A stretch of 64,000 nt of DNA from a bacterium (GCA_031441465.1 JANOEP010000016.1:64001-128000); one strand, 5' to 3'; shown: positions 9,890 through 36,159, counted from the stretch's first letter. The notes: generated from the letters alone by a model not told the origin. A program made the numbers and translations.

Positions 9890-10924
9890 TCAGTCGGCGG
9901 CCAGCGCCGGCTTGGGGGCGCGGTCGGCGCCGAACAGCCCCCAGTGCTTCTCGACCTCGTGTGGGTCGTCGCTGCCCTTCCAGTTCTCGTCGAAGGCCTC
10001 GAACCAGAACGAAGCCAGGCGCGCGACCGCGACCCAGGCGCGGTAGCGCCGGAAGAACTCGGTCTGGCTCGCCTCGTCGGTACGGCCCGTGATCAGCCGC
10101 CCCTGGTTCCCCTCGGTCCTGCGGTCGGTCGCCCAGCCGACCTCGCCCAGCGCCAGCGTCGCGCCCGGGTGCGCGGCGCGCACCTCGGCCAGGCGGGCGT
10201 CGAGCCACGGCAGCGCCTCGTCCAGAGAGCGGCCGTTCCACAGCGGATGCGCGTGCAGGGTGACGAAGTCGAGCTCGCGGGCCACCTCGCGGCTGGCGGG
10301 CTCACGCCAGTAGGCGAAATCGTCGGCGGTGCTGACCGGGACCGTCACGGCCGCGCGCACTTGGCGGATCCTGGCGATCAGCGTCGCCGGGGAGCAACGG
10401 TTCCCCGACCAGGACACCTGGGTCTCGTTGCCCACGCACACGGCGAGGACCACGTCGGGGTAGGCGTTGGCCAGTCGGATCGCGGCCGCGCATTCCCGCT
10501 CGTTGGCGTCGGTCTTCTCGGCGTCCGGCGCGCCTTGGTCGCCGTCTCCCCGTTCGGGTTCGATCCACGCGCCCAGCATGACCTTCATGCCCAGGGAATC
10601 GGCGCGGATCGTCGCGAGGACCGTCTCGGCGGTCTCCGCCGCGCCGTAGGTCCGCAGCAAGCGCCACCGCGGCCGCATCAGACGCAGGTCCTCGAGGATC
10701 TGGTCGGCCGCGGGGCCGGGCCCGCCCGGTCTCTGGCCGTCGCGGTGCGGTCCGTAACAGATCGCCTCGCCGATCCAGGCGTCGTCTTCGCAGGGCTGGA
10801 AGGGGCGGATGTCCACGGCAGCCTCCCGTTGCGGGGTGGTGTCGAACGGCGCAGCCATCCCGCCGGCCGCCGGTCCGACAAGGACGAGCGCCGCAGTGGC
10901 CGCGGGGATCACCAGCAACCACAT
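9890..10924 (-). CDS. Secreted GH17-family beta-1,3-glucanase/glucosidase
   Basis: GGAGGT RBS, signal peptide; AICYGP, LRTYG, VGNE (acid/base), GEVGW (nucleophile), FEAFDENWK, EKHWGLF. Confidence 0.85.
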   Translation of the reverse strand: MWLLVIPAATAALVLVGPAAGGMAAPFDTTPQREAAVDIRPFQPCEDDAWIGEAICYGPHRDGQRPGGPGPAADQILEDLRLMRPRWRLLRTYGAAETAETVLATIRADSLGMKVMLGAWIEPERGDGDQGAPDAEKTDANERECAAAIRLANAYPDVVLAVCVGNETQVSWSGNRCSPATLIARIRQVRAAVTVPVSTADDFAYWREPASREVARELDFVTLHAHPLWNGRSLDEALPWLDARLAEVRAAHPGATLALGEVGWATDRRTEGNQGRLITGRTDEASQTEFFRRYRAWVAVARLASFWFEAFDENWKGSDDPHEVEKHWGLFGADRAPKPALAAD

Positions 10925-11254: not shown

Positions 11255-11285
11255 CTTGATTCGGTCACCGAACATAGTTTATAAT
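11255..11285 (+). promoter_or_regulatory. Operator copy B overlapping a sigma70 promoter
   Basis: CTTGATTCGGTCACCGAACATAG (11255-11277); -35 TTGATT 11256-11261, 18-nt spacer, -10 TATAAT 11280-11285. Confidence 0.8.
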
Positions 11286-13819: not shown

Positions 13820-13875
13820 GGTCGGCTCCTGGTGCGGGTCCGGTCGCGACGGACCGCCGGCTGATGCCGCAGGCA

Positions 13876-16800
13876 TCAAGCCGGGCGCGGCACGGCGACA
13901 TCGACCTCGATGAGTGCGACCCGGCCGCTGCGGGCGAACAGCTCGGCGCTCGTGGCCGGGGACAGCCCGTCGCCGTCTTGCCGGGACGACGAGCCGTCGG
14001 CGAACGCGATGCGCAGATGCGGCGGCCCGTCGTTCCGGGTATACACGACCGGCACCTGGCAGTAGGTGAACGCCAACTGGCCGGCCGACAGGGAGATGGT
14101 CTGCTCGCGCCCTTCCACATCGTAATACCGGAAGGCAGAAGGCTGCGCGAGGAACTCGTCACTCCGCAGCAGGCGTGGACGGAAGCGCACGGCGCCCGCG
14201 GACACGCGCACGCCCAACTCGCCGAACCTGGCCAGGATCTCCTCCTTCACCTGACCGGTCATTCCCGGCTGCTTGGCGCCGCCGTGGGCCGGGGTGTGCG
14301 AATAGGGGTCGGTCGGGAAGGCGCCGAACTCCGCGACGCTCTTCTCGGGGCCGAGGCCGGCGCGGATGCGGAAGTAGGCCGCGGCCAGGCCGTCGCGGAT
14401 CGCGGCCGGCGCGTTGTCGCGCTCGGCTGTCAGGGCAGCCGCCTGGGTCGCCAGCAGGAGCTTCGCGACCATGTGCCAGTAGATGCAGCCCAACCCCTCG
14501 TAACCGTACATCACGCCGGAGCGCCCGGTGTAGGAGCGGTGGCTGAACACGCGTTCGTAAAGCTCGCGCACGGCCTCGCGATCGCGGGCGACGGCCCCGG
14601 CCCGGCCCGGGCGCTCGGCCAGCGCGTCGAGCGCCGCTTCGAGGTCGTGTTCGTTGCGCAGGCCGGCGGCGAAGCGGATGGCGCCGTCGGCGTCGCGGGC
14701 GACCAGCGCGCCGTCGCCGGCGGCGAGCGACTCCCGCAGCAGGGGCACCGCCTCCGCTAGGTCGCCCGGCACGAGGTTGCGCGCCAGGAATCCCGGCAGC
14801 TCGCGTTCCGGGTACAGCAGGAAGCTGCGGCGATCCGGGCGGTAGAGGTCGCTGGCGAACAGCTGCTCGATCACCGCGAGCGAGGCGGCCGGGTCCAGCG
14901 CGCCCGAATCGAGCGCGGCGACCTGCCCCTCGAGCATCACCGGCAGGCGACCCACCTCGACCCGGGAACCGTCGGGGGAGAAGTGCAGCAGGTTGTAGCC
15001 GTGGAACAGGCCGTCGTCGCGTCGGTTGGCCGCGATGCTGCGTTCCGTCCAGGCCAGGGCGGTACGGCACAGGCGGGCGGCGCGCGCCGGCGCGAGGCCG
15101 ATGTCGCCGTTCAGCCCGCCCGCGTATGCCGCCCGGCGGTAGTCGTCGAAGGCGCCGCCGAGACGGTCCAGCAGCCGCTTGCGGTCGCGCGGGTCGAGCG
15201 GGCCCGCGCCGGATGGGAGCGCTTCCTCCTCGAAGACCTGCGCGAGGCCGTCGAACCAGGCGGCGATCTCGGCCGCGACGGGCAGTTCGGTCTCGCCGGC
15301 CGCCGCGAAGCGTTCGGCGAGGAAAGCCAGGTAGCGTCTCAGGTGGCAGAGCGTGACCACCGAGACGCCGCCGCCGGCCAGCGCGTTGTTGGCGTCGTTC
15401 CACTCCGGTCGCTGCGTGTTCATCCAGATGCCGGCGTCGGGAACCAGGTTCGACAGCTTGGACAGCGCGGGCACCAGCAGCTTCTCGAACAGGTTCGCGC
15501 GGCGGACCGCGCCGTCCCCGCTGCGCAGCAGCTTGCCGTCGGTGCCGATCGCGGCGACGCGCGCCCCGATCCGCGCCGCGAGCTCCGTGTCGAACTCGAT
15601 CGTGTCGCACGGGTTCTTCAGGATCTCGGCGTAGGGCCTGATGCGGTACGGCACCTCGACGTAGGTGTAGATCCGGTCGCCGAGCGCCGCGCCGAACGCC
15701 GCGGGCTCGTGGCGGTGCCAGAGTTCGAGCAGGCGCAGCAGGTAGACCACCTGGTGATCGCCCCAGTAGCCGATGTTGCTCCAGGAATCCGACGGCGTGA
15801 CGGTCTCCCAGTCCACGCCGTCGCGGGAGATGCGGAACGGGTTGAAGCCGTCGACCGTCGATGCGTTGACGAACTTGGCGACGACGTTCGGCAGGAAGCC
15901 GGGATAGGAGACGCAGAGTGCCTCCCAGTTCTGGAAGATGTCCCGCCAGTTGCCCTCGTAGCCCAGCGATCGGGCCCCGCCGTGGCCCCGCGCGCGGATC
16001 GAGAACGTGTTCCAGGGCCGGCTCGGGTCGCCGTGGCGGCGCCCGAAGTGCAGGGGCAGGTACTCCAGGGCGTACCGCGCGAGGTCGGGGTCGCCGGAGG
16101 CGACGGCCGCCGCGCGCAGCTCGCGGATCGACGGCGTCTCGGGCAGGGCGTCGAGCAACCCGCGCCGGCGCGCGGCGACCCTGCGGTCGCGGGCGAGCAC
16201 GAAGGTGGCGAAATCGTCGGTGGGAGCCGTCTCGTTCCGCCAGAAGACGCCGCCGCGCATGTTGTTGAACAGGACGTTCGCGAAGTGGTGGGCCCAGGCC
16301 TCGGGACGACCGGTGGCCTGCAGGCCGTCGGCGGCGGCGACGATCCGCCGCAGACCATCGCCGGCCCGGTCCAGCGCCGCGGCGACGCGGGCGTCCAGGT
16401 CCGATTCCTCGCGCAGCAGGCCCCGCAGGGCCGCGACCGCGACGTGGTCGCGGCCGGTGTCGCAGACCAGGCGCCAGCGCACCGCGGCGCCCGGACCCAG
16501 CTTCAGGCTCGCGCCGACCAGGTAGTTGCCGCGGACGCCGTTGAGCGTCGTGTCGGCGGCGGCGGCGCGGCCGCGGCGGAAGTCATCGAGCGCCCGGCGC
16601 GACAGGTGGCGGCGGCTTCCCGCGAGCCCGCAGCACCAGACGACGTTGGCTCTCAGCGATTCGAGAGCTTCGGCCCGGTCGGTGATGCCGGCGGTCAGCG
16701 AGAACACTCCCAGGCCCGTGGCGGGATCGATCTCGGACTTCTTGTAGGCGTCGATCAGGTTCGGCGTCTGCTGGTACAGGCTCAGCGGCGCCCCGTGAGG

Positions 16801-17358
16801 CAGCACGTTGAGCAAGCCGTCCAGCAGGTCCAGGCGCCGGGTCGCGCCGCTCCGGTTCTCCAGCGTGGCGGTGCGCACCCACCCGAACTCGTCGCAGCCG
16901 GCCCACTCGTGGCGGAACGCCAGGCCGAGCGCGTGATCGATCTCCTCGAAGACGAGGCGCGTGCCGGCGGCGTTCTTGTAGAGGTTCCTCTCGACCTGCG
17001 CCTCGCCGGCGCGGTCGGTGAACGGTTCCCACAGGGTCGTCGCCGCTTCGGCGGACGCCAGCCGGATCAGCGTGCGGGGACCGGTGTGGTGGTGGGCGTC
17101 GTGCAGCTCGTCGGCCGTCACGTAGGGGAACAACGCTCCGTCCGGGTCGATCCGGCCCGCGGTCAGACCACCGCGCGAAGAGACGAACAGCCACAGGTCG
17201 GCGTCGTTGGCCAGGGTCATCAGGAAGGGTTCGAGGCGGTCGTAGGCCGCGATGCGATAGAACTGCTCCCCGTCGAGCGTGACGAAGCCGCCCGTGGGCG
17301 CCGACGACGGGAGCGCCGGCGGGGTCAGGGGATGTGCGGGCGCCGGCTTACCCTCCAT
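13876..17358 (-). CDS. GH149-type beta-1,3-glucan phosphorylase (cytoplasmic)
   Basis: 1160 aa, no signal peptide; RRHGDPSRPWN, YEGNWRDIFQNWE, IGYWGDHQ, PEWNDANNAL, YEGLGCIYWHM, GAFPTDPYSHTP, QPGMTGQVKE, recalled as GH149 motifs. Confidence 0.8.
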   Translation of the reverse strand: MEGKPAPAHPLTPPALPSSAPTGGFVTLDGEQFYRIAAYDRLEPFLMTLANDADLWLFVSSRGGLTAGRIDPDGALFPYVTADELHDAHHHTGPRTLIRLASAEAATTLWEPFTDRAGEAQVERNLYKNAAGTRLVFEEIDHALGLAFRHEWAGCDEFGWVRTATLENRSGATRRLDLLDGLLNVLPHGAPLSLYQQTPNLIDAYKKSEIDPATGLGVFSLTAGITDRAEALESLRANVVWCCGLAGSRRHLSRRALDDFRRGRAAAADTTLNGVRGNYLVGASLKLGPGAAVRWRLVCDTGRDHVAVAALRGLLREESDLDARVAAALDRAGDGLRRIVAAADGLQATGRPEAWAHHFANVLFNNMRGGVFWRNETAPTDDFATFVLARDRRVAARRRGLLDALPETPSIRELRAAAVASGDPDLARYALEYLPLHFGRRHGDPSRPWNTFSIRARGHGGARSLGYEGNWRDIFQNWEALCVSYPGFLPNVVAKFVNASTVDGFNPFRISRDGVDWETVTPSDSWSNIGYWGDHQVVYLLRLLELWHRHEPAAFGAALGDRIYTYVEVPYRIRPYAEILKNPCDTIEFDTELAARIGARVAAIGTDGKLLRSGDGAVRRANLFEKLLVPALSKLSNLVPDAGIWMNTQRPEWNDANNALAGGGVSVVTLCHLRRYLAFLAERFAAAGETELPVAAEIAAWFDGLAQVFEEEALPSGAGPLDPRDRKRLLDRLGGAFDDYRRAAYAGGLNGDIGLAPARAARLCRTALAWTERSIAANRRDDGLFHGYNLLHFSPDGSRVEVGRLPVMLEGQVAALDSGALDPAASLAVIEQLFASDLYRPDRRSFLLYPERELPGFLARNLVPGDLAEAVPLLRESLAAGDGALVARDADGAIRFAAGLRNEHDLEAALDALAERPGRAGAVARDREAVRELYERVFSHRSYTGRSGVMYGYEGLGCIYWHMVAKLLLATQAAALTAERDNAPAAIRDGLAAAYFRIRAGLGPEKSVAEFGAFPTDPYSHTPAHGGAKQPGMTGQVKEEILARFGELGVRVSAGAVRFRPRLLRSDEFLAQPSAFRYYDVEGREQTISLSAGQLAFTYCQVPVVYTRNDGPPHLRIAFADGSSSRQDGDGLSPATSAELFARSGRVALIEVDVAVPRPA

Positions 17359-17460: not shown

Positions 17461-18432
17461 CTATTTCACCAGGGTCATGCTGCGGGACACGTCGCCGGCC
17501 ACCGTCTTCAGGACGCAGCGGTACTGCCCGGCCGGGGCGGCCCGGCCGTTGCCGTCGCGTCCGTCCCAGACCGCGCTGTGCCCGCCGGCGGCGAACATGC
17601 CGTCCGCCAGCACGGCGATGCGGCGGCCGCCGAGGTCGTACACCGCGATCTCGACCGGGCCGGCGGCGTCCAGTGCGAACTCGATCCGCGTGGACGGGTT
17701 GAACGGATTGGGATGGTTCTGCGCGAGCCTGACGCCGGGCAGCGTCGCGGCGGGCGCGGCGGTGGAGTTGTCCAGGTGGAAGTCCACGTTGTCGTAGAAG
17801 ATGCCCGAGGGCTCGAACAGCGTCACGAGGTTCATGAAACCGAACTGAAACAGCTGGCCGACCAGCCCGGCGTCGATCGTGAGCGAGACCTGGTAGCCGC
17901 CCCAGGTCGCGGGGATCGCGGTCATGTCGGCGGTCACGAAGTTGGTCATCGCGTAGCCGTTGGCGGGGTCGATGGTCTTGATGAACGCCAGAGCCGTCGA
18001 GCCGCCGCCGAGGTTGCCCATCTTGGCCTGGAACGCGAAGACCCAGGTGTCGCCGACGTCGCCGGCGACGATCGTCTGTTCCTTGAAGATGTTCGCCTGG
18101 ATCCAGTTGCCGCCGCCCTGGGCCTGGTTCTGGTAGTCGCCGTAGACCGACAGCTGCCTGCTGCCCTGATCGACGCCGCCCTCGCCGGTCGCGATCGCGC
18201 AGAACGCGGCGCCGTCGTTGGGAGCGGGGTAGGGGCCGTAACCGTACATCCAGACCATCGACGGATTGAAGGCGTTGCCGTAGACCAGCCAGCCGTCGCC
18301 GATCAGTCGCCCGACCGCCGGCAGGGGCATGCCCTCGAATGTCTGGGTGTAGGGAGTGAGCGCTTGGCTGACCCCGGAGAGCAGGCAGAGCAGAGCCGCT
18401 GCCGCAACGATCGTGGTGACTTTGGTTTTCAT
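17461..18432 (-). CDS. Secreted protein with uncharacterised beta domain and C-terminal FlgD-Ig domain
   Basis: GAGG RBS, signal peptide MKTKVTTIVAAAALLCLLSGVSQA; no catalytic motif recognised; NHPNPFNP...WDG tail. Confidence 0.8.
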   Translation of the reverse strand: MKTKVTTIVAAAALLCLLSGVSQALTPYTQTFEGMPLPAVGRLIGDGWLVYGNAFNPSMVWMYGYGPYPAPNDGAAFCAIATGEGGVDQGSRQLSVYGDYQNQAQGGGNWIQANIFKEQTIVAGDVGDTWVFAFQAKMGNLGGGSTALAFIKTIDPANGYAMTNFVTADMTAIPATWGGYQVSLTIDAGLVGQLFQFGFMNLVTLFEPSGIFYDNVDFHLDNSTAAPAATLPGVRLAQNHPNPFNPSTRIEFALDAAGPVEIAVYDLGGRRIAVLADGMFAAGGHSAVWDGRDGNGRAAPAGQYRCVLKTVAGDVSRSMTLVK

Positions 18433-18551
18433 CTCGACAACCTCTCGTTGAAGACGGCTCCCGCACCTGCGGACCGCGTCAGGTCGACCGCGGCGGGCGA
18501 TGGCGGCGATGCGCCCGCCTGCGCGGATTCCTGCCTTGACAGGGCCTCCAG

Positions 18552-18583
18552 TATCATACACTATGTTCGGAGTCCGAACAAAG
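18552..18583. promoter_or_regulatory. Operator copy C between divergent operons
   Basis: CTATGTTCGGAGTCCGAACAAAG (18561-18583); minus strand reads TTGTTC...TG-TATGAT; TTGACA on plus strand at 18536-18541. Confidence 0.8.
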
Positions 18584-18673
18584 ATTTTTTTCTGGGTTGT
18601 CCGGGGGCTTGCCTGATGACCGGGCGCGGTCGGAAACTCCGGTGGACCACGGCGTGAGGGGAGTCGAAGGACC

Positions 18674-20050
18674 ATGACCCTCCATCGTTTTCCTGAGGGA
18701 TTCCTCTGGGGTGTCGCCACCTCCGCCCAGCAGATCGAGGGCGCGCGTCGCGACGACGGTCGCGGCGACTCCATCTGGGACCGCTTCGCCGACACGCCCG
18801 GAAAGATCGCCGACGGCGCCGACCCCGGCGTGGCCTGCGACCACTACCACCGTTGGCGCGAGGACATCGATCTCATGCAGCGGATGGGCCTGAACGCCTA
18901 CCGCTTCTCGATCGCCTGGCCGCGGATCCTGCCCGAGGGCCGCGGGACCGTCAACGCTGCCGGCCTCGGCTTCTACGATGCGCTGATCGACGCGCTGCTG
19001 GAGGCCGGGCTCGAACCTCTGCCGACGCTCTACCACTGGGATCTGCCCCAGGCCCTGCAGGACCGCGGCGGCTGGTCGTCTCGCGACACGGTCGATGACT
19101 TCGCCGACTATGCGTCGGCGGTCGCGCGGCGCCTCGGCGACCGGGTCCGCTGGTGGACCACCCACAACGAACCCTGGTGCGTGGCGACGCTCGGCCACGA
19201 GGAGGGGCATCACGCGCCCGGCCACGCCGATCCGGCCGAGGCCCTGCGCGTCGCGCACCACCTGCTGCTCTCGCACGCACGCGCGTCGGCGATGATCCGC
19301 CGCGATGCGCCCGGCGCCGAGGTCGGGCTGGTGACGAACTACTGCCCCGCCCACCCGGCCACCGACAGCGAGGCCGATGGCGACGCCGCCCGCTGGTTCG
19401 ACGGCTTCTTCAACCGCTGGTACCTGGATCCCCTGTTCTGCGGGGAGTATCCGGCGGACGCCGTCGCCGACCGCATCGCCGCCGGCCACCTCGCCGGTCC
19501 GGAGTTGCCGTTCGTGCGGGACGGCGACCTCGCCGCCATCTCGCAGCCGCTCTCGTTCCTCGGTATCAACTACTACAGCCGCGTCGTGATGCGCGCGGGA
19601 GCGGACGGCCGCCGCGAGGCGGTGCCGCCGGCGCCGCCGGCGGCGGTCACGGACATGGGCTGGGAGGTACGGCCCGAATGTCTGCACGAGAGCCTGCTGC
19701 GCCTCACGCGCGACTACGCGCCGCGCCGGCTCCTGATCACCGAGAACGGTGCGGCCTACGACGATCCGCCGGGCCCGGACGGCCGCATCGCCGACGCCCG
19801 CCGGATCGATTACCTGCGCGGCCACCTGCTGGCCGCCCAGCGGGCGATCGCGGATGGCGTGCCCCTGCAGGGGTACTTCGCCTGGTCGCTGCTGGACAAC
19901 TTCGAGTGGAGCTTCGGCTACCGCATGAAGTTCGGGCTCCACGCGGTCGATCCGCGGACCCTGGCGCGTCTGCCCAAGGACAGCGCCGTCTGGTACGCGG
20001 ATACCGTCTCAGCCAACGCCGTCGAAGACAACCTCCCGTCCACCGGATAA
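18674..20050 (+). CDS. GH1 beta-glucosidase (cytoplasmic)
   Basis: FLWGVATSAQQIEG, YRFSIAWPRI, TLYHWDLP, THNEP, ITENG, WSLLDNFEW. Confidence 0.95.
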   Translation: MTLHRFPEGFLWGVATSAQQIEGARRDDGRGDSIWDRFADTPGKIADGADPGVACDHYHRWREDIDLMQRMGLNAYRFSIAWPRILPEGRGTVNAAGLGFYDALIDALLEAGLEPLPTLYHWDLPQALQDRGGWSSRDTVDDFADYASAVARRLGDRVRWWTTHNEPWCVATLGHEEGHHAPGHADPAEALRVAHHLLLSHARASAMIRRDAPGAEVGLVTNYCPAHPATDSEADGDAARWFDGFFNRWYLDPLFCGEYPADAVADRIAAGHLAGPELPFVRDGDLAAISQPLSFLGINYYSRVVMRAGADGRREAVPPAPPAAVTDMGWEVRPECLHESLLRLTRDYAPRRLLITENGAAYDDPPGPDGRIADARRIDYLRGHLLAAQRAIADGVPLQGYFAWSLLDNFEWSFGYRMKFGLHAVDPRTLARLPKDSAVWYADTVSANAVEDNLPSTG

Positions 20051-20061
20051 AGGAGACTCCC

Positions 20062-23000
20062 GTGCACTCGAATCCAGCCGGACGCTTCCGCCGCCCTCCC
20101 ACCGCGGTCCTGCTCGCGTGCCTGCCGCTGCTGCTGGCCGCGTCGTCGGGCATCCTCCCGGCCCGGGCCGCGCCGCCGCCGCGCGTCGTGGTGGTGACCG
20201 ACGACAGTGGTTCGCGCCTGCAGGTCGGCGGCCGCGACTTCCCGGTCTTCGGGATGAACTGGGACTACATGCCGATCGGCCACAACTACACCTACAACCT
20301 GTGGGCGCAGCCGGACGAGGTGATCGTCGCGGCGCTGGAAAGGGAGATGTCCCTGCTGCAGAACATGGGCGTCAACGCGATCCGCCAGAGCGTCGGCGTG
20401 CCGCCGCGGTGGGTGGCGTACATCCACGAGAAATACGGCATCTTCACGGTGCTCAACCACGTGGTCGGCCGCTACGGCCTGACCCTGGGCGGCGTGTGGA
20501 CCCCGGCCACCGACTACGGCGATCCGGCGACGCGCGCCCAGTTGCGGGGCGAGGTGTCGGCGATGGTCGAGCAGTACCGCGGCACTCCGGGCGTGCTGAT
20601 GTGGCTGCTGGGCAACGAGAACAACTACGGACTCTCCTGGAAGTCCTTCGAGATCGAGGCGCTGCCCGAGGGCGAGCGCGACGTCGCGCGGGCGCGCCGC
20701 CTGTACTCCCTGTTCGGGGAGATCGTCCGCGACGTCCACCGCCTCGACCCGGACCGCCCTGTCGCGATCGCCAACGGCGACGTGCAGTACATCGACCTGA
20801 TCGCCGAGGAGTGCCCCGACCTGGACGTGTTCGGCACCAACGTGTACCGCGGCGGCTCGGCGCGCGACCTCTTCCAGGTGGTCCGCGACAAGCTGGGGAC
20901 GCCGGTGATGTTCACCGAGTTCGGAGCCGACGCCTTCAACGCGGTCACGATGCGGGAGGACCAAACCATGCAGGCCCGGTACCTGCTGGCCCAGTGGCGC
21001 GAGATCTACGCGCAGGCCGCCGGTCAAGGCCGGGTGGGCAACGCGATCGGCGGCCTGGTCTTCCAGTGGAGCGACGGCTGGTGGAAGTACCTGCAGGACA
21101 GCCGGCTCGACGTCCACGACACGAACGCCTCGTGGCCCAACGGCGGCTACGTCGAGGACTTCCGCGAAGGCGACAACAACATGAACGAGGAGTGGTGGGG
21201 CATCGCCGCCAAGGGTCCGCCCGACGCGCACGGCCTCTACGAGGTCTATCCCCGCGCCGCCTACTACGCGCTGCGCGACGCGTTCAGCCTGGACCCCTAC
21301 GCGCCGGGGACGGATCCCGCCGCCATCGCGGCACACTTCGACCGCATCACCGCGACGGGCGCGGCGCTCGAGGCGCGCGGCGCCTCCGCCAGCCTGGAGA
21401 CCGACGCGCTGGGCAAGGTTCGCGTGGCGGGCCTGCGTCTGGAGTACGAGACCTACAGCACCGGCGGCGAGAACGTCAGCACGCCGCCGTCGTCGGCGCC
21501 GCAGGAGGCGTTCCCCTCCTACCGCGGCTTCGACAACGGCCAGTCGTTCTACGTCGATCTCGAGGCCAAGCCCAGCGGCGCGGTCACCGGCCGCCTCTCG
21601 CTGAACGTGCTGGGCCACGTGGCCCGCAACCGGATCGACGAGGTGTTCTACGAGAACCGCGGCCGACCCCAGGCGGTGCGCGCCGCCGACGGCGGCGTCC
21701 TGCAGCTCGACGCCAACGAGCGGGTCAAGGTCTACCGGTCGTCGCTGTCGTGGAACGACAAGCGCTTCGACCTCGAGGCGTTCTACCGCACCGGCCATCT
21801 GCACTGGCAGTACGAGGGTGATTTCTTCGGACTGTACCGCGATGCCTATTACGGCGAAAACGTCGACATCTACAACGGCGAGGCGCCGATCGGCTTCGAG
21901 ATCGCGGGCAAACGGGGGCTCGCCGGGCTCAAGGCGGCCTTCGGGCCGCAGCTCTGGTGGGGCGCGAACCCGGCGATGTTCGTCAAGTACCAGCGGCGCG
22001 CGGCGGGTGCGGACTGGACAGCCTTGTTCCAGGACGACTTCACGCAGCAGACGCAGCTGAGCAGCTCGGTCGCGATTCCCGTGCGCAAGACCCGCAAGGC
22101 GTCGCTGCAGCTGAAGGCGCCGGTCGGCCGGTTCTTGTTCGAGGGGGGCGTGCTCTGGTCGGGGCGGCCGCGCGTCGGCGAGACGTTCCAGCTCGTGGAC
22201 GAGGACTTGCTGGCGTCGGGCGCGTCGCTCTCGCCCGCCGACGTCAGGCAGGACGCGATCGTCGACGGCGACACGTTCGGCTGCAAAGGCAAGCTCACCT
22301 GGCAGCGCGGCCGCTGGAACTGGTACGCCCAGGGCGCCTACATGGGCCTGGTCGCCGAGGCCGGCCCCACGGCCATCCCCACCTTCACCGGCTGGGAGCT
22401 GCGGGACAGCGGCTCGGGCAACCAGGTCAACGCGCTGTCCGGCGTCGCGGTGACGCTGGGCGACTGGCAGGTCGGGCCGAACCTGCTGTGGCAGAAGCCC
22501 ATTGTCGGGCCCATGCCGGGCGCGGAGCAGCTCGCCTACACCCAGGGACGCCCGCGCAACATCCTCGACGACCCGTTCGCGGTGCGCGGCAACCGCGAGA
22601 CCAAAGCCGCCGAGCTGATGGTCGTCTACGATCCCACGCCCGCCACCTGGATGTGGACCTGGGACAGCGACGCGCGCGAGGATGCCGACCTGGCCGCCAG
22701 CCTCGGCCTGGTGTTCCGCCGCCACGAGACCACGGCCGACGCGGGCCTGTTCATCTCGGCCGAGAATCTGATCTACCCCTTCCCGGGCGGCACGCCCCCG
22801 CGCGACCTGTGGGAGCTGCACGCCCGCGTCGCCAACCGCGTGGGCGCGGGAGCGCGCATGGTCGGCCACCTGTACTGGGGCACGTCCGAACCGAACGGCG
22901 CCGACCGCCGCCTGATCCACCGCTTCGGCACCGACGCGCGCATCGGCTGGCGGTCGGCGGCGCTGGCGGGCCATCTGAAGCTCAACGACTTCGGCCCCTA

Positions 23001-23259
23001 CGATTACCAACGCGACTTCAACCTGACCTACCCGCTGCAGGCGATGGCGGACGCGTCGTTCACGCTCGGCTCGCCGGTCTGGTTCAGCCTGCCCCAGACG
23101 AAGCTCGGCGTGCGTCTGACCTACCGCACGCTCGACCGCCACTCGAACCGGTATGCGCCTGAGGGGTACGCAGCGCCGGTTGTGGGGGAGCTGTATCCTG
23201 AGGGTCTGCCGGGCGGACGGGAGTGGGAGATCCGTACCTACCTGCACCTGAGTCTCTAA
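20062..23259 (+). CDS. Secreted GH-A clan (GH2-like) TIM-barrel glycosidase fused to a probable outer-membrane beta-barrel
   Basis: GTG after AAGGAG; signal peptide; MGVNAIR, LLGNEN, FTEFG, FQWSDGWWK; C-terminal ~620 aa of amphipathic beta-strands ending EWEIRTYLHLSL. Confidence 0.75.
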   Translation: MHSNPAGRFRRPPTAVLLACLPLLLAASSGILPARAAPPPRVVVVTDDSGSRLQVGGRDFPVFGMNWDYMPIGHNYTYNLWAQPDEVIVAALEREMSLLQNMGVNAIRQSVGVPPRWVAYIHEKYGIFTVLNHVVGRYGLTLGGVWTPATDYGDPATRAQLRGEVSAMVEQYRGTPGVLMWLLGNENNYGLSWKSFEIEALPEGERDVARARRLYSLFGEIVRDVHRLDPDRPVAIANGDVQYIDLIAEECPDLDVFGTNVYRGGSARDLFQVVRDKLGTPVMFTEFGADAFNAVTMREDQTMQARYLLAQWREIYAQAAGQGRVGNAIGGLVFQWSDGWWKYLQDSRLDVHDTNASWPNGGYVEDFREGDNNMNEEWWGIAAKGPPDAHGLYEVYPRAAYYALRDAFSLDPYAPGTDPAAIAAHFDRITATGAALEARGASASLETDALGKVRVAGLRLEYETYSTGGENVSTPPSSAPQEAFPSYRGFDNGQSFYVDLEAKPSGAVTGRLSLNVLGHVARNRIDEVFYENRGRPQAVRAADGGVLQLDANERVKVYRSSLSWNDKRFDLEAFYRTGHLHWQYEGDFFGLYRDAYYGENVDIYNGEAPIGFEIAGKRGLAGLKAAFGPQLWWGANPAMFVKYQRRAAGADWTALFQDDFTQQTQLSSSVAIPVRKTRKASLQLKAPVGRFLFEGGVLWSGRPRVGETFQLVDEDLLASGASLSPADVRQDAIVDGDTFGCKGKLTWQRGRWNWYAQGAYMGLVAEAGPTAIPTFTGWELRDSGSGNQVNALSGVAVTLGDWQVGPNLLWQKPIVGPMPGAEQLAYTQGRPRNILDDPFAVRGNRETKAAELMVVYDPTPATWMWTWDSDAREDADLAASLGLVFRRHETTADAGLFISAENLIYPFPGGTPPRDLWELHARVANRVGAGARMVGHLYWGTSEPNGADRRLIHRFGTDARIGWRSAALAGHLKLNDFGPYDYQRDFNLTYPLQAMADASFTLGSPVWFSLPQTKLGVRLTYRTLDRHSNRYAPEGYAAPVVGELYPEGLPGGREWEIRTYLHLSL

Positions 23260-23281
23260 GCGGTCCCGCGCAGGACGACGA

Positions 23282-23309
23282 GGGGCCCGGCCGTTTCGGC
23301 CGGGCCTTT
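23282..23309 (+). terminator. Rho-independent terminator
   Basis: Stem GGCCCGGCCG / CGGCCGGGCC followed by TTT. Confidence 0.7.
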
Positions 23310-23359
23310 CCGTGTCGGCGGCGGGACGGGGAGGCCGTCGTCCCGGGGAGTCGCGGTGC

Positions 23360-24169
23360 CTACCGTAAATCGCCGTAGACGCGGACCCAATCGACGAGCA
23401 TCGCCTGCGGGAAGACGGTCGAATCGTCGGGCGGGCCGACCCAGTTGCCGCCCACCGCGACGTTCAGCAGGATGAAGAAGGGGCGGTCGAAGACCCAGGA
23501 CGCGCCGGCGGGCAGAGCGGAGCGGTCGACCGCCAGGTAGGCGTAGCCGTCGATGAACCAGGTGATCGACCTGTCGTTCCAATCGATCGCGTAGATGTGG
23601 AAACCGAAGTCGTAGCCGCCCTGGGAGATCGAGTGGGCGGCGGTGAGCGCCGCGCCGCCGGCGTAGCCGGGGCCGTGCAGGCTGCCGTGGATCGTGCGCG
23701 GCTCCTGGCCCCGGTACTCCATGACATCGATCTCACCGCACGCCGGCCACCCGACCTCGCGCACGTCGGCGCCGAGCAGCCAGAAGGCGGGCCACAGGCC
23801 GCGGCCGGAGGGCAGCTTGAGGCGCGCCTCGAAGCGGCCGTGCGCCTGCGCGAACAGTCCCTCGGTCTTGAGGCGGGCCGAGGTGTAGGCGCGGTCTTCC
23901 CACTCCTGCGCGCGGGCCGTGATCGCGAGGCGGCCCTCGCCGTCGAGACACGCGTTCTCGGCGCGGTCGGTGTCGTACTCGAGCTGGGCGTTGCCCCAAC
24001 CGGTGCCGATGTCGAAGCACCACTTGGCGGGATCGGGCTGCTGGCCGGCGGGGCCTTCGAAGTCATCCTCGAAGGTCAGGCCGTAGGGCGCCGGCGCCTC
24101 CTCATCGGTGCAGCCGCCGGCAGCGCCGAGGGCGAGCAGCGCCGCGAGCAGCGCCGCGGCGGTCTTCAC
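23360..24169 (-). CDS. GH16 laminarinase-type lipoprotein
   Basis: Lipobox AGGC; GWGNAQLEY, YTSARL, GLWPAFWLLG, WPACGEIDVME, FFILLNVAVGG, VDWVRVY. Confidence 0.9.
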   Translation of the reverse strand: MKTAAALLAALLALGAAGGCTDEEAPAPYGLTFEDDFEGPAGQQPDPAKWCFDIGTGWGNAQLEYDTDRAENACLDGEGRLAITARAQEWEDRAYTSARLKTEGLFAQAHGRFEARLKLPSGRGLWPAFWLLGADVREVGWPACGEIDVMEYRGQEPRTIHGSLHGPGYAGGAALTAAHSISQGGYDFGFHIYAIDWNDRSITWFIDGYAYLAVDRSALPAGASWVFDRPFFILLNVAVGGNWVGPPDDSTVFPQAMLVDWVRVYGDLR

Positions 24170-25431
24170 GCCAGGGCGTCGCCGGCGCGCGCCGGGACAG
24201 CGACCGTTGGGAACAGGTGGGAATCCTCGAGCGCCGTTTTCAGGACCAGCGTCGCCGCCCCGATCGCCACCGACAGCGGACCCAGCTCGCTGGTGCGGAT
24301 CTCAGCCGCGGCCAGCGAGCTGACCAGCGTGCGGTTGCGGATGTGTTCGCGCAGCGGTCCGAGCAGCAGGTCGCCGAGACGGGCGAGGTCGCCGCCGACG
24401 ATCACCAGAGACGGGTTCATCAGGTTCATCATGCCGGCCACGGCGCGGCCGAGATGTTCGGTCGCCTCGGTCGCCACGCGCAGCGCCAGCGGATCGCCGG
24501 CCAAGGCGGCGTTCTCGATGTCGTGGACCGAGATCGCGAGGCCGGTCAGCGAGCTGCCCGGGTAATCGGCGCCCAGTTCCAGCGCGCGTTCGACCAGCGC
24601 CTGGCTGCCTGCCAGGGTGACCAGGCATCCCTGCAGTCCGCAGATGCAGCGCTTGCCCTTGGGGTCGATCGAGATGTGTCCGATCTCGCCCGCGGTGCCG
24701 GTGGCCCCGCGGTAGATCTCGCCGCCGATCACGTGCCCGGAGCCGATGCCGGTGGCGACCTTGATGTAGGCGAGGTCGTCGACGCCGCGGCCCACGCCCC
24801 ACCAGTGCTCGGCCAGGGCGCCCAGGTTGGCGTCGTTGTCGACCATCAGCGGCGCGGCGAGCCGGCGCGACAGGTCCTCCAGCCCGAGACGGCCGCCCCA
24901 GGCGGGAATGACGATCTCGGAGAGGCGGCCGGGGTGAGAGGGGTCGAGCGGGCAGGGCACCGCGACGCCGACGCCCACCAGTGGCCGCTCTGCGGCCGCC
25001 GGCGAGGCGAGGCATTCGTGGCACAGCGTCTCGATCAGCCGGCGCGTGCCGTGCGGATCGTTGCGCACGGGGTGTTCGCGTGCGGCGTGGGCCAGCACGC
25101 GGCCGCGCAGGTCGGTCAGCGCGACGGTGACGTGGGCCGCGCCCATCTCGACGCCCAGGATCGTGCAGGCGTCGTCGCGGAATTCGAGCACGATGGGGCG
25201 GCGGCCGCCCTGCGACGGGCCCTCGCCGCACTCGATGACGATCCCCATGGGCAGGATCTCGTTGACGATCTCAGAGACGGTGGAGCGCGACAGGCCGGCG
25301 AGCCGCGCGATGTCGGCGCGCGAAACGCGGCGGTGCTGCCAGATCAGCCGCAGCACGGCGTCGGCGAGGGGTCGCGGTCGGTCCGGACCCGACCGACGCA
25401 GCCCCTTCCAGTGCAGGTTACCGTTGTTCAT
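24166..25431 (-). CDS. ROK-family transcriptional repressor (XylR/NagC-like)
   Basis: N-terminal HTH SRADIARLAGLSRSTVS, GGRRP linker, DNDANLGALAE, GIGSG, GEIGH, CICGLQGC zinc motif. Confidence 0.9.
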   Translation of the reverse strand: MNNGNLHWKGLRRSGPDRPRPLADAVLRLIWQHRRVSRADIARLAGLSRSTVSEIVNEILPMGIVIECGEGPSQGGRRPIVLEFRDDACTILGVEMGAAHVTVALTDLRGRVLAHAAREHPVRNDPHGTRRLIETLCHECLASPAAAERPLVGVGVAVPCPLDPSHPGRLSEIVIPAWGGRLGLEDLSRRLAAPLMVDNDANLGALAEHWWGVGRGVDDLAYIKVATGIGSGHVIGGEIYRGATGTAGEIGHISIDPKGKRCICGLQGCLVTLAGSQALVERALELGADYPGSSLTGLAISVHDIENAALAGDPLALRVATEATEHLGRAVAGMMNLMNPSLVIVGGDLARLGDLLLGPLREHIRNRTLVSSLAAAEIRTSELGPLSVAIGAATLVLKTALEDSHLFPTVAVPARAGDALA

Positions 25432-25473: not shown

Positions 25474-26856
25474 CTACCTGTGGAAGTAGACGTTGTCCAC
25501 CAGCACGACACTCGCGTCGGGGGTACTCAGCACGATCTGGCCCAGATGGTCCAGCGGCACGGTGAACCCGAAGTCAGCCAGGGGGATCTCCAGCGACGAC
25601 CAGCCGCCGGCGACGAAGGCGGGCGTCGTCGACGCGTCGAAGGCCAGCTCAGAACTGCCGGTGCCCCAGCCGTTGTCGCCGCTGAACGGGACCAACTTCA
25701 CCAGGAAGCGGGTCCCGGCCGGCGCGAACACGTCGAGGTGCAGGTGTGTCATCGCCGTCACGTCGATCGTGTGCAGGTGGAAGTCGAAGCCCACGAAGTT
25801 CAGGAAGGTGTAGAAGCGCGACAAGTCGCCGTCGATCGTGAAGAGACCGTCCTCGGTCGTCGAATACTGCCAGCGGGGGTTCCAGTTGACGACGGTCGCG
25901 TCCGGGTAGACGCCGCTGAACAGCGAGATCACGTCGGCGCCCGGCAGCGTCGGCGGCGTTGCGGGCACCGGCGGCGGCTGGTAGCCGCTGACGGTCACGG
26001 CGCCCTCGACCGGCATCCCGGCGAGGGTGGCCGTGATGACGGCCTCGCCGAGACCGACCATTCGGATCTCGTTGCGGATGACCGTCGCCACCGACGGGTC
26101 CGACGAGCTGAAATCGAAGTAGCCGGGCATGTGGTCGACCCGCACCGGGGCCCCGTCCACGGCGAAGACGGTGTGGACGCTGTCCAGCCTGGCGGTCGTG
26201 CCGATGAAGTACTGCTTGTTCAGGGGCTTCAGGGTGGGCTGGGGGTCGGTGACGTTGTCGAGCCGCGCGAAGCGGATGTCGTCGATCCAGATCCGGTGGC
26301 CCTCGGGATAGCCGACCTCGCGGCCCTCGGCGAAGGTGAACATGCCGCGCTCGGACACCAGCTTCGCGGGCGCGGGGATCGGCACGACCACGAACGACCA
26401 GGCAGTCGTCAGGGGAATGCCCGAGCGGCCGGCGGTCAGGTGCGAGGTGCCGGTGTTGTCGTTGCCGTAGCCGAACACGTCCATCGCACAGGGGATGCTG
26501 GCGCGGGCATAAAAGGTCAGCGCGTTGAAGTCGGCCAGGTCGCGGCCGGCGACGGCGGTCAGCACGCCGCCCGCCCACGCTCCCAGGTTCGAGCCCTCGG
26601 GCGGCACGGTGATCGTCAGCGAGCGGTCGCCGGACTGCACGAACACCGAATCGGCGCCCACCGCGTACGGATCGGTGTCCATGAAGGCCTGGAAGTAGAC
26701 GTCGGGGGCGTAGGCGTCGTCGAAGACCAGGGGGTCGATCGGCGCGCGCGCCTGGTCCAGGTCGGCGGGGTTGCGGTTGCCGCAGCCGGCGCCGGTCAGG
26801 GCCAGGGCGCACAGCAGGGCCAACGCGAGGGACGACGAGGGACGGATCGGCATCAC
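25474..26856 (-). CDS. Lipoprotein with Ig-like domain and putative carbohydrate-binding modules
   Basis: GGAGG RBS, lipobox GAGC; FSSSDPSVATV Ig-like (Big_2) motif; Pro-rich linker then DVISLFS...THLHLDVF module; no catalytic motif. Confidence 0.7.
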   Translation of the reverse strand: MMPIRPSSSLALALLCALALTGAGCGNRNPADLDQARAPIDPLVFDDAYAPDVYFQAFMDTDPYAVGADSVFVQSGDRSLTITVPPEGSNLGAWAGGVLTAVAGRDLADFNALTFYARASIPCAMDVFGYGNDNTGTSHLTAGRSGIPLTTAWSFVVVPIPAPAKLVSERGMFTFAEGREVGYPEGHRIWIDDIRFARLDNVTDPQPTLKPLNKQYFIGTTARLDSVHTVFAVDGAPVRVDHMPGYFDFSSSDPSVATVIRNEIRMVGLGEAVITATLAGMPVEGAVTVSGYQPPPVPATPPTLPGADVISLFSGVYPDATVVNWNPRWQYSTTEDGLFTIDGDLSRFYTFLNFVGFDFHLHTIDVTAMTHLHLDVFAPAGTRFLVKLVPFSGDNGWGTGSSELAFDASTTPAFVAGGWSSLEIPLADFGFTVPLDHLGQIVLSTPDASVVLVDNVYFHR

Positions 26857-26915: not shown

Positions 26916-26965
26916 CTTTGTGCGGTTACCGATCAAAGTATGGATGAGGGGATCATCGATGTCAA
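26916..26965 (-). promoter_or_regulatory. Operator copy D plus sigma70 promoter of lipoprotein-ROK-GH16 operon
   Basis: CTTTGTGCGGTTACCGATCAAAG (26916-26938); minus strand TTGACA-17 nt-CATACT abuts the operator. Confidence 0.8.
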
Positions 26966-28219: not shown

Positions 28220-28389
28220 GACGTTGCCTCCGTGTGCGTCGGTTCGTCGGCGGACCGCGGGCGGTCCGTTCTCACCCCGACAGAGTAGCAGATCCGGCGG
28301 CGGGCACAAACGTCCGATCCGGGGGCTTTTGGACGTGATAAGATCGGCGCGGGTCCGGCCCGGGGGGGTGCTTCCAGGAGGTGGGGTCG

Positions 28390-34264: not shown

Positions 34265-36061
34265 TCATTTCACAAGTATCATCTGCCGAGTCGCCGAATC
34301 AGAACCTGCTTGGAGGCGGTAGTAGTAGACGCCCGACCCCAAGTTGGCGCCCCTGTCGTTGCGGCCGTCCCAGAGCAGCGAGTTGCCTCCGGCGGAGCCC
34401 ACTCCGCCGAAGCCGGCCACCCTGCGCCCGGTGACGTCGTAGATCTCCAGTTCATAAATGCCCGCAGAGGGCAGGTCGAAGCGGATCTCCGTCCGGGCGT
34501 TGAAGGGATTCGGCGTGTTGGCATGGAGATCCAACCGGCGCCCAGAGGCAACGCCATCATCGACGGCGCCGGTGCTGCCGCCTCCGTCCCAGTAGATGTC
34601 GTCCAGGGCGAACGTGCAAGCCGTGCCATTCTCCTCGAGGATGACGAACTCGTAACTCAGCATGCGCAGGTCGATGGCCGTTCCCCTCAGGTCGCTGACA
34701 GGGATCGAGGCCTGTCCCCAACCGCCGTTCCGCACCAGTCCGTATTTCGTCTGGTACGCCGGGAATTGGACGTAGTGCTGGTTGCCCCAGGTATCGATGA
34801 TCCCGATCTTGAAGGTGACGTTCGCGGGAATATTGATCCGGAACTTCAGGTGCCCGTCGCCGAAACCGAACAGGTTCACCGGCTGCATGGACATGATGCC
34901 GGCTCCGAACCAGCCGCTGCCCGCGGTCTGCCAGGAGAGGACGTTGTCGCCCTCGTAAGGGGCGATGGAGCCGTTGGTCAGTGTGCCCTCCCATACGTAG
35001 ATCTCCGCGGACACATCCGGCACCAGACCGTCATCGGTGGGCGTTTCGTCGGTATAGATCCCGAACGTCCCGATTTCCTGGAGCGGTGGTCCCAGGCTGA
35101 CTTCACCCTGGCCGTTCCATTGGTACAGCCGGATGTAATCAACGTACATTTCGGCCGGGAGCGGCATCGAGACCGGAGCGCCGCTGCCGGGGTTGCCGAG
35201 TTGGTACGCATCGGTGAAGGCCCCGCCGATGGCCAGATTCGCGATCAGGTAGAAGGGCGCCTGGAATTCGGCGGAGGCGCTGTCGATGGTGAACGGGGAC
35301 GTGTACAGGTCGTGTTCCACGCCGCCATCGACGACGGTCATGCGCAGGCTGTTATCGTCCCAGTACAACCGGTAGATCAGGAAGCGCTCGACGAGCGGAT
35401 TCGCATAGCTGTAGTACGGGCGGCAGAAATCGTCGTCCGGGTCCCAGGACAGGCTGGCCGCCCCCGAAGGATTCTGGGGCGTGACGGCAGCGGCCGAGTA
35501 GTAGACGGCGTTGGCCGCCACCGACTGATTGACCGTGGAATTGTTCAGTCCGTTGCCGCCGTTGTGCGTGTCGTGCAGATCCCTGTAGGCTTGCTTGGCG
35601 CCCATCTCCGTCATGTCGATCTCGCCGCAACGGGGCCAGGCGTAGTTGGCGGATCCCAGCAGCCAGACCGCGGGCCAGCCGCCCAGATCGATGTCCGGGA
35701 TGCGCACCCTGCACTCGATCATGCCGTACTTGACGGTCACGAACGACTTGCTGACGACCTTTCCCGACGTGTAGGCCAGAGGATTGCCCCACTGATCGAC
35801 GATGCCGGGTCCGCTCTCCTGCCTGGCCGTGATGCGCAGGGCCGTGTTCCCGGCTTCCCCGGGAATCGGCGCGATCCCGACATTCTCCTGCTTGTAGAAT
35901 TCCAGCTCGCCGTTGCCCCAGCCCCAATAGCCGTTCCCGGTGATGGTGAGCCAGTTGTCCAGGTCGTCGAAATTCTCTTCCCAGATCAGGTCGCCGACCT
36001 GGGCCAGAGCGGGGTTGCAGACGAAGAACAGGATCGCCAGCGGCAGGTGGATCTTCTTCAC
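34265..36061 (-). CDS. Secreted GH16 beta-glucanase with CBM-like module and C-terminal FlgD-Ig domain
   Basis: GTG after GGAG; signal peptide; LIWEENF, GWGNGELEFY, WPAVWLLG, GEIDMTE, YVDYIRLY; NTPNPFN...WDG tail. Confidence 0.85.
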   Translation of the reverse strand: MKKIHLPLAILFFVCNPALAQVGDLIWEENFDDLDNWLTITGNGYWGWGNGELEFYKQENVGIAPIPGEAGNTALRITARQESGPGIVDQWGNPLAYTSGKVVSKSFVTVKYGMIECRVRIPDIDLGGWPAVWLLGSANYAWPRCGEIDMTEMGAKQAYRDLHDTHNGGNGLNNSTVNQSVAANAVYYSAAAVTPQNPSGAASLSWDPDDDFCRPYYSYANPLVERFLIYRLYWDDNSLRMTVVDGGVEHDLYTSPFTIDSASAEFQAPFYLIANLAIGGAFTDAYQLGNPGSGAPVSMPLPAEMYVDYIRLYQWNGQGEVSLGPPLQEIGTFGIYTDETPTDDGLVPDVSAEIYVWEGTLTNGSIAPYEGDNVLSWQTAGSGWFGAGIMSMQPVNLFGFGDGHLKFRINIPANVTFKIGIIDTWGNQHYVQFPAYQTKYGLVRNGGWGQASIPVSDLRGTAIDLRMLSYEFVILEENGTACTFALDDIYWDGGGSTGAVDDGVASGRRLDLHANTPNPFNARTEIRFDLPSAGIYELEIYDVTGRRVAGFGGVGSAGGNSLLWDGRNDRGANLGSGVYYYRLQAGSDSATRQMILVK

Positions 36062-36159
36062 GGCGTTTCTCCCAATTCCATTGCGGACTGAAGAATGCGG
36101 GATCGCGGTCCTTGCGGGTCGTCCCAAGCGGTTCCGTACGGACCTCGTCGCTAGTCGGA

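Follow-up and report, generated by a model that had tools for sequence, protein, structure and literature searches.

The gene at positions 20062-23259 (+) of a 64,000-nucleotide stretch of bacterial DNA (GCA_031441465.1 JANOEP010000016.1:64001-128000, the whole of which is referred to here as the window) encodes a 1065-residue protein, P0001, in which a glucanase-like domain of glycoside hydrolase (GH) clan GH-A is joined to a predicted outer membrane β-barrel of about 24 strands. Both kinds of component, a glycan channel and a GH-A glucanase, are known; the novelty would be their joining in one protein, with a barrel family that has not been described. The preferred reading, to which a probability of roughly one half is assigned, is that the protein forms a channel passing glucan independently of TonB and carries its glucanase tethered on the periplasmic side.

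The C-terminal region (residues 453-1064) had been read in an initial annotation, made from the sequence alone, as a probable outer membrane barrel, soluble β-sandwich domains being named as the case that would refute this; three structural analyses agree on a membrane-type barrel. AlphaFold2 (AF2) models the whole fusion with a predicted local distance difference test score (pLDDT) of 86.6 and a predicted template-modelling score (pTM) of 0.71, and the C-terminal part alone (from 41 sequences) with 89.7 and 0.84, respectively. DSSP assigns to this region 24 long antiparallel strands of 7-18 residues each, connected by hairpins into one continuous array, in which the even-numbered connectors are short (2, 3, 6, 2, 2, 2, 2, 20, 2, 2 and 12 residues) and the odd-numbered ones long (18, 37, 34, 7, 18, 39, 26, 34, 25, 9, 11 and 27 residues). 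One face of the strands is hydrophobic at 108 of 136 residues and charged at 14; on the other face 54 of 136 residues are hydrophobic and 39 are charged. Foldseek, queried with the barrel, gives an outer membrane barrel in every row among the matches listed, the best being PfeA (E 8.5e-12) and others including BtuB, LptD, MOMP, AlgE, Occ porins and OmpF, at TM-scores of about 0.3-0.4. VIA-align, which is independent of Foldseek and was run against 48,161 chains, gives membrane barrels in 50 of 50 rows (AlgE at the top with Z 15.3, then, among others, OccD2 at 14.0, MOMP at 13.7 and maltoporin at 12.0).

The best VIA-align scores belong to passive, plug-less barrels for sugars and polymers (AlgE, OccD/OpdK, maltoporin, chitoporin, CymA, BcsC, PgaA). 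These channels differ from the fusion in having 14-18 strands and no fused enzyme; their alignments cover just a portion of the model (residues 77-495, for instance), and they have no sequence-family match to it. Alignment over the full range (model residues 23-636) is obtained with the 24-strand ushers FimD (Z 12.7) and PapC (11.5) and with 26-strand MtrB (10.8). This whole-barrel alignment supports the size class of the fusion, and from full-range alignment to closed barrels we infer that the modelled barrel is itself closed. The likeness is one of size: FimD and PapC assemble pili and MtrB is an electron conduit, and an usher contains a plug domain inside its barrel as well as periplasmic domains at both termini.

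By sequence, the barrel appears to belong to an undescribed family. Plug, TonB_dep_Rec, autotransporter and porin families have no Pfam match on the fusion at E up to 1, which is in keeping with the earlier statement that no plug is recognizable. (As a control, the same Pfam library finds Plug (PF07715) and TonB_dep_Rec (PF00593) in the SusC genes of two related loci, L067 and L068.) Searches of PDB sequences with the single sequence and with a profile match the N-terminal domain and give nothing for the C-terminal region. A protein-atlas feature search with this region returns unnamed clusters together with DUF6029 (PF19494) at 0.93. Membership in DUF6029 was considered and rejected: there is no Pfam match to it on P0001 or on five barrel-only or N-terminally short homologues. 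Four apparently standalone barrel homologues (P0227, P0230, P0257 and P0267) were rejected as evidence for a split form of the system: they have no signal peptides and are probably gene calls cut short.

The last strand, EWEIRTYLHLS (residues 1052-1064), reaches the C-terminus, and Y1060 is retained in 141 of 149 homologues. The strand that had been described as resembling a β-signal is thus real; its final residue is L here and, across the family, I in 85, L in 22 and F, Y or W in 17 of 149, whereas the classical β-signal ends in an aromatic. Conservation is not concentrated in the strands, which average 0.66: long loops L3, L4 and L11 score 0.81, 0.89 and 0.83; L3, L4, L7 and L11 together with turn T8 span 0.76-0.89; and T8 itself, a 20-residue turn on the short-turn side, scores 0.78. 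This suggests pore-lining or docking roles for the conserved long loops and T8.

The N-terminal domain is, on the evidence of sequence and model, an intact clan GH-A enzyme lying nearest to the endo-β-1,3-glucanase families GH158 and GH157, and such an activity is predicted for it. Pfam matches residues 91-307 to Glyco_hydro_2_C (E 8.7e-6; 25.5 bits, with a cut-off of 21), and NCBIfam finds nothing on the fusion but weak β-galactosidase matches, all to this domain. The GH2 match is weaker than the match to GH158: a profile built from 42 homologues of the fusion finds 6pal_A in the PDB at E 3.2e-12 (193 positions) and GH158(Pro) (9oro_A) at 4.7e-12, with GH2 β-galactosidases at 5e-7 and weaker. 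Foldseek with the AF2 model likewise finds BuGH158 (6pal_A, 'Bacteroides uniformis endo-laminarinase') at E 3.7e-14 with a target-normalized TM-score of 0.57, GH158(Pro) (9p26) at 9.9e-14 and LaGH157 at 1e-12, with GH2 enzymes lower. The N-terminal sugar-binding and Ig-like domains of GH2 enzymes have no Pfam match on the fusion at E up to 1, and the TIM domain starts at about residue 42, straight after the signal peptide.

In the profile alignment, the family motifs GNE and TEFG correspond to GNE and TEWG in 6pal and to the identical GNE and TEFG in 9oro; the aligned glutamates of BuGH158 (NE after strand 4, TE after strand 7) are presumably its catalytic residues. Their counterparts, E186 (in LLGNEN) as putative acid/base and E286 (in FTEFG) as putative nucleophile, each persist in 144 of the 149 homologues of full length, and the annotated arrangement of a signal peptide followed by a TIM barrel with both GH-A glutamates stands. 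Solved enzymes of GH158 (BuGH158, 6PAL; GH158(Pro), 9ORO/9P25/9P26) and GH157 (LaGH157, 9FZ9/9G4N) share with the fusion the clan GH-A TIM barrel and occurrence in β-1,3-glucan loci, and in GH158 the GNE and TE(F/W)G motifs align as well; these enzymes are 400-530 residues long, whereas the catalytic domain of the fusion precedes a 610-residue membrane barrel. One related locus, L074, contains at 7953-9209 (+) a TIM-only paralogue of 418 residues, unanchored and with a plain signal peptide, that ends where the linker helix would begin. It lies directly upstream of a full-length fusion (L074:9517-12681, +) and may have arisen by duplication or may represent a natural 'enzyme without barrel' form.

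The gene call itself requires some care because the window has about 70% G+C and, as a consequence, numerous spurious overlapping open reading frames (ORFs); third-position G+C was used to pick real genes. The frame of the fusion is open from 19153, the upstream stretch overlapping the GH1 gene at 18674-20050. The start is placed at GTG 20062, which is preceded by AGGAG at 6 nt and by the GH1 stop codon at 11 nt. This start agrees with a 1065-residue database protein ('glycosidase [Gemmatimonas sp.]', 94% identical) and with locus L001, which aligns over residues 1-1065. The N-terminus, read by eye, has RFRR, a hydrophobic run and then ARA/AP, as expected of a putative signal peptide of the Sec/SPI type; AF2 places a helix at 15-28, with low pLDDT at 1-14 and 27-35. 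By eye, the N-termini of orthologues show a hydrophobic run without a cysteine lipobox ahead of the TIM domain in eight of nine cases, and in the ninth (L045) the ORF start is over-long. Between the two domains, a linker of two helices leads into strand 1 and is the least conserved segment of the fusion (0.55).

Relatives of the fusion are widespread. The barrel region matches more than 4565 proteins among 8000 scored candidates, nearly all of them about 1040-1080 residues long, and an exhaustive search of representatives at 50% identity gives 2050 matches with E no higher than 1e-3, of which 325 have E of 1e-30 or lower. At one genome per species, at least 596 species genomes have a relative, out of 600 candidate stretches. 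Carriers belong to Gemmatimonadota, Krumholzibacteriota, Eisenbacteria, Ignavibacteria, Calditrichota, Bacteroidota and a few Myxococcota; cultured carriers among the Bacteroidota include Flavobacterium terrisoli, F. chungnamense and Flavilitoribacter nigricans, with loci L064, L071 and L045. In the genome from which the window comes (3.49 Mb, 96.8% complete) the fusion is single-copy. The initial annotation had allowed that homologues may exist under the name of the enzyme only, and so they do: database names are confined to 'glycosidase', 'GH2 TIM barrel-domain containing protein' and 'beta-galactosidase'. Since these names show the enzyme only, metagenomic surveys of carbohydrate-active enzymes may count the fusion as a soluble enzyme and miss the barrel.

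The neighbours of the fusion recur. In 80 kept loci searched by tblastn, many of them short contigs, GH16 is found in 51, a lipoprotein designated partner A in 50, GH149 in 25, a ROK regulator in 22, a GH17-like protein in 18 and GH1 in 13. In six loci from Bacteroidota, Ignavibacteria and Calditrichota, the gene that immediately follows the fusion shares 33-40% identity with partner A. In loci of the Bacteroidota type a regulator (Y_Y_Y/Reg_prop type) is followed by the fusion, then by partner A and then by GH16, often with GH149, GH17 and MFS_2. This is the layout of a polysaccharide utilization locus (PUL), with the fusion in the position of SusC and partner A in that of SusD: the sequence regulator, big barrel, lipoprotein, GH16 matches that of SusC/D PULs, and in both systems a large outer membrane barrel is paired with a surface lipoprotein. 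The likeness does not extend to families. Unlike SusC, the fusion has no plug or TonB_dep_Rec signature and has about 24 strands instead of 22; unlike SusD, partner A has no SusD family match, nor any other Pfam match, and its best PDB sequence match is uninformative (E 0.83). A lipobox cysteine followed by acidic residues was seen by eye in 12 of 12 orthologues of partner A and in 6 of 7 of GH16, an arrangement that may correspond to the surface-export signal of Bacteroidota.

Two Pfam scans of neighbourhoods bear on SusC and SusD themselves. The first covered 8 of 12 loci (L001, L007, L013 and L023 were dropped on account of unreliable ORF calling at high G+C) and took in ORFs of 110 residues and above other than the fusion genes; the second covered 18 loci and ORFs of at least 400 residues, of which 98 were called and 49 searched after removal of fusion, partner A and GH149 orthologues. 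SusC together with SusD was found within 8 kb of the fusion in 0 of 8 and 2 of 18 loci, respectively, or 2 of 26 in total. The anticipated absence of susCD near homologues is thus borne out in 24 loci and contradicted in L067 and L068, both of marine Flavobacteriaceae, in which SusC and SusD followed by a protein with a carbohydrate-binding module (CBM) and PKD domain (L067:65-4578; L068:65-4299) lie directly upstream of the fusion in the same orientation. The fusion is, then, usually found without SusC/D, yet coexistence is possible. The window's own genome gives no SusD match; it has eight TonB-receptor matches, all on contigs other than that of the window. Bacteroidetes clusters that contain GH149 while 'lacking susCD-like gene pairs' are described in PMC5827456.

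Within the window (Table 1), the fusion is the second gene of an operon that begins with GH1, and it is convergent with a downstream operon of partner A, the ROK regulator and GH16. Between the two, the hairpin at 23284-23306 looks like a shared terminator of the fusion and GH16; it was not flagged by a terminator scan, having fewer than five T and no T run. The GH149 assignment of P0272 is based on a match to 6hq6_A at E 3.2e-294 over residues 22-1154. A palindrome ties these genes together. The pattern TGTTCGG-N3-CCGAACA occurs, with up to two mismatches, six times in the window (one of these, the site at 18564, being the source of the pattern), whereas 0.20 occurrences are expected and none of 100 shuffles reaches six. 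All six copies sit in promoter gaps of β-glucan genes, and the palindrome probably serves as operator for the ROK regulator encoded at 24166-25431, a candidate assignment made from sequence. Because palindromes are present at all these promoters, the fusion is placed in one β-1,3-glucan regulon, for which control by ROK is the simplest arrangement. A sigma-70 promoter scan of 18300-23500 found none. The proposed β-1,3-glucan setting of the enzyme is accordingly upheld, by its nearest families (GH158 and GH157) and by the company of GH149, GH16, GH1, GH17-like and ROK genes.

Table 1. Features of the fusion protein and of its surroundings in the window (positions counted from the first nucleotide of the window)
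Feature	Position	Strand	Basis
Fusion gene (GH158-like glucanase and predicted outer membrane barrel), 1065 aa, P0001	20062..23259	+	translation, start context, homologue lengths
Putative signal peptide, Sec/SPI type, residues 1 to ~36	20062..20169	+	by eye; AF2
Clan GH-A (β/α)8 catalytic domain, residues 42-418	20185..21315	+	Pfam, PDB profile, Foldseek
Linker, two helices (419-427, 431-449) into strand 1	21316..21417	+	DSSP of AF2 model
Predicted outer membrane β-barrel, ~24 strands, residues 453-1064, no Pfam family	21418..23253	+	AF2, Foldseek, VIA-align
GH1 β-glucosidase without signal peptide, first gene of the operon	18674..20050	+	Pfam Glyco_hydro_1, E 1.1e-154
GC-rich hairpin GGCCCGGCC-GTTTC-GGCCGGGCC, 9-bp stem	23284..23306		by eye; between convergent fusion and GH16
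GH16 laminarinase-type lipoprotein (…LGAAGGC-TDEE…)	23360..24169	-	Pfam GH16, E 2.6e-22; N-terminus
ROK-family regulator, N-terminal winged helix	24166..25431	-	Pfam ROK, E 1.1e-51
Partner A, 460-aa lipoprotein (P0271), no Pfam family	25474..26856	-	conserved neighbour of fusion
GH149 β-1,3-oligoglucan phosphorylase, cytoplasmic, 1160 aa (P0272)	13876..17358	-	phmmer against PDB
Secreted protein, FlgD_ig-type C-terminal domain; divergent from GH1	17461..18432	-	Pfam FlgD_ig, E 6.4e-8; ATG at 18432
GH17-like secreted protein	9890..10924	-	Pfam Glyco_hydro_17, E 4.7e-6, under curated cut-off
GH16/SKN1-like secreted protein, FlgD_ig C-terminal domain	34265..36127	-	two palindrome copies upstream (36170, 36370)
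Palindrome TGTTCGG-AGT-CCGAACA, perfect 7-3-7	18564..18580		94 nt upstream of GH1 start
Palindrome copy, 2 mismatches	26919..26935		upstream of partner A-ROK-GH16 operon
Palindrome copies	11101-11117, 11258-11274		upstream of GH17-like gene and orf230
Palindrome copies	36170-36186, 36370-36386		upstream of GH16-like gene 34265-36127

If the fusion is a channel with a tethered glucanase, it would lie in the outer membrane with its enzyme in the periplasm, would pass glucan independently of TonB, and would bind partner A. The surface lipoproteins, partner A (with its CBM-like β-sandwiches) and GH16, would capture and nick the glucan; a chain would then enter the barrel, whose conserved long loops would line or narrow the pore, and the glucanase, at the periplasmic, short-turn mouth, would cut the chain as it emerges. 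Hydrolysis, rather than TonB, would make passage one-way. The oligomers would then be imported across the inner membrane (related loci carry genes for MFS_2 importers), and their breakdown would be completed in the cytoplasm through phosphorolysis by GH149 and hydrolysis by GH1.

Several observations favour the periplasmic side for the enzyme. Judging by the connector pattern, both termini of the barrel, and hence the point to which the TIM domain is attached, are on the short-turn side, and in solved outer membrane proteins that side is periplasmic; because the N-terminus of strand 1 is there, a periplasmic TIM domain is the simplest placement. The same placement is favoured by the TIM-only paralogue of L074, anchorless and with a plain signal, by the conservation of T8, by the availability of the GH16 lipoprotein as surface endo-enzyme, and by the lack of a lipobox in the fusion, whereas partner A and GH16 have lipoboxes.

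A number of points weigh against this reading. The predicted closure of the barrel, the width of its pore and the placement of the TIM domain relative to the membrane are all read from DSSP, connector lengths and alignment ranges in a model. The terminal L or I is not the classical aromatic residue of a β-signal. As to the enzyme, single-sequence phmmer with the fusion finds no GH158 match in the PDB at E up to 1, and structural alignments to GH158 and GH157 are at 12-15% identity, that is, remote, for which reason any CAZy family assignment would be tentative. As to its surroundings, Pfam scans find no inner-membrane sugar transporter in the window, and the fusion is no simple substitute for SusC/D, since L067 and L068 carry both. 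As to partner A, its binding to the barrel is weakly suggested by co-folding: the barrel with residues 24-296 of partner A scores 0.41 (the best of three controls scores 0.00), with runs agreeing in at least 70% of contacts and partner A pLDDT of at least 83. Of 157 solved complexes, 116 reach the mark set for such co-folds, as do 2 of 215 mismatched pairs; only 18 of the 157 solved complexes, but both of the passing mismatches, reach it at a score of 0.60 or below. Finally, the order of segments (signal peptide, globular passenger, helix of about 19 residues, C-terminal barrel) is that of classical autotransporters, and one homologue, P0162, carries an N-terminal CBM_4_9 domain, which in neighbouring genes accompanies proteins secreted by the type IX secretion system.

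These last two points also speak for the strongest competing explanation, in which the linker helix passes through a wide barrel and the GH158-like domain is displayed on the outside of the cell. The barrel would then be mainly an anchor, with the helix disposed as in type V autotransporters or as H1 of FhaC; the domain would do the job of the surface lipoprotein BuGH158 (reportedly a surface enzyme in Bacteroides), and oligosaccharides would enter by way of SusC/D or other channels. Type Va autotransporters with enzyme passengers, such as EstA and NalP, offer a precedent, with signal peptide, enzyme, α-helix and C-terminal barrel in the same order, and the presence of SusC and SusD alongside the fusion in L067 and L068 also favours this explanation. 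On the other hand, autotransporter barrels have 12 strands, no Pfam autotransporter family matches the fusion, and 24 strands with loops L3, L4 and L11 better conserved than the strands exceed the needs of an anchor. The linker helix, which would have to thread the pore, is the segment with the lowest conservation. SusC/D is missing from 24 of 26 loci, and SusD from the window's own genome; the TIM-only paralogue of L074 is unanchored and bears a plain signal peptide; and the GH16 lipoprotein is already the likely endo-glucanase of the surface. Display of the enzyme outside the cell is on balance unlikely, yet it deserves to be taken seriously.

The remaining alternatives fare worse. Secretion of a self-made β-glucan through the barrel, in the manner of AlgE, PgaA and BcsC, with the hydrolase trimming or clearing polymer in the periplasm, could draw on the first place of AlgE in VIA-align, on the barrels of PgaA and BcsC among the other rows, and on glycosyltransferase genes elsewhere in the window (27022-28071 and 45917-47308). 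It could draw as well on the neighbourhood in feature space to DUF6029, a family that PMC9603273 links, tentatively, to polysaccharide secretion. Set against this, all conserved neighbours are catabolic or regulate uptake (GH149, GH1, GH16, GH17-like, ROK or BguR-type regulators, MFS_2), the palindrome regulon takes in hydrolase genes only, and the fusion has neither a glucan synthase nor a TPR scaffold linked to it, so that export is highly improbable. A divergent TonB-dependent transporter, its plug replaced by or hidden in the N-terminal region, would account for the place of PfeA, BtuB, PirA and FepA at the head of the Foldseek matches to the barrel (E 8.5e-12 and weaker), yet is barely credible given TM-scores of just 0.33-0.41, a secondary-structure count of 24 strands instead of 22, the lack of Plug and TonB_dep_Rec matches, and the 377-residue TIM barrel and helices that precede strand 1 and would probably be too big for the interior of the barrel. 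That the C-terminal region consists of soluble β-sandwich or CBM domains, making the protein an ordinary secreted multidomain glucanase, is a negligible prospect: a β-rich region of alternating hydrophobicity occurs in soluble sandwiches too, but AF2 gives a single 24-strand array, and VIA-align and the listed Foldseek rows contain membrane barrels only and no sandwich.

The channel with a tethered glucanase, if it is real, would explain how polymer crosses the outer membrane in clusters without susCD, such as the GH149 loci of PMC5827456. It would also add an energy-independent principle of import, and would be a tractable experimental target in cultured Flavobacterium and Flavilitoribacter species. 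Laminarin-type β-1,3-glucans represent a major carbon flux, laminarin being among the most abundant marine glycans, and current models of how diderm bacteria take these glucans up rely on SusC/D or other transporters of the TonB-dependent type. A broader and more doubtful proposal is that the fusion and partner A constitute a third kind of outer membrane glycan importer beside passive porins and TonB-powered SusC/D, common across the Fibrobacteres-Chlorobi-Bacteroidetes (FCB) group, here represented by Gemmatimonadota, Krumholzibacteriota, Ignavibacteria, Calditrichota and Bacteroidota, in which a pore threads β-1,3-glucan into a glucanase and hydrolysis, not proton-motive force, makes uptake one-way. 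Should this tentative generalization be true, it would be relevant to laminarin turnover. The catalytic side of such a scheme has a precedent in GH158(Pro), from which it appears that relatives of the glucanase domain can be processive (PMC13195107).

In agreement with the initial annotation, literature searches turned up no characterized protein of this architecture. Nor did they find a published fusion of a glycoside hydrolase to an outer membrane barrel in a β-glucan locus, although PUL figures and supplementary tables may hold the gene without comment. Marine surveys place GH158 among the markers of laminarin PULs, with no barrel mentioned in the available portions of the two sources (PMC10108472; bioRxiv 10.64898/2026.01.10.698779).

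A few further observations concern the related loci and the remainder of the window. In L044, a single open frame at 3-2711 (-) encodes MFS_2 (residues 44-467) and, behind it, an N-terminal domain of GH3 (523-837), which may be a transporter-glycosidase fusion or could be an artefact of ORF calling at the end of a contig; GH17-MFS fusions are known from laminarin loci, according to PMC10108472. Behind the two palindrome copies that it shares with the GH17-like gene, orf230 (11412-12104, +) encodes a secreted protein of 230 residues with no Pfam match, which probably belongs to the same regulon. Five secreted proteins of the window (405-3041(-), 12197-13879(-), 17461-18432(-), 28381-29883(+) and 34265-36127(-), a trypsin-like protease and the GH16-like enzyme among them) have in common a C-terminal FlgD_ig-type domain of about 80-95 residues with 31-51% mutual identity. 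This domain may be a C-terminal sorting tag, in the role that Por_Secre_tail has on the equivalent neighbours in Bacteroidota. The segment at 34001-38000, which spans the GH16-like gene and the gap at 36128-37371, has a G+C content of 0.62-0.63, compared with about 0.71 elsewhere.

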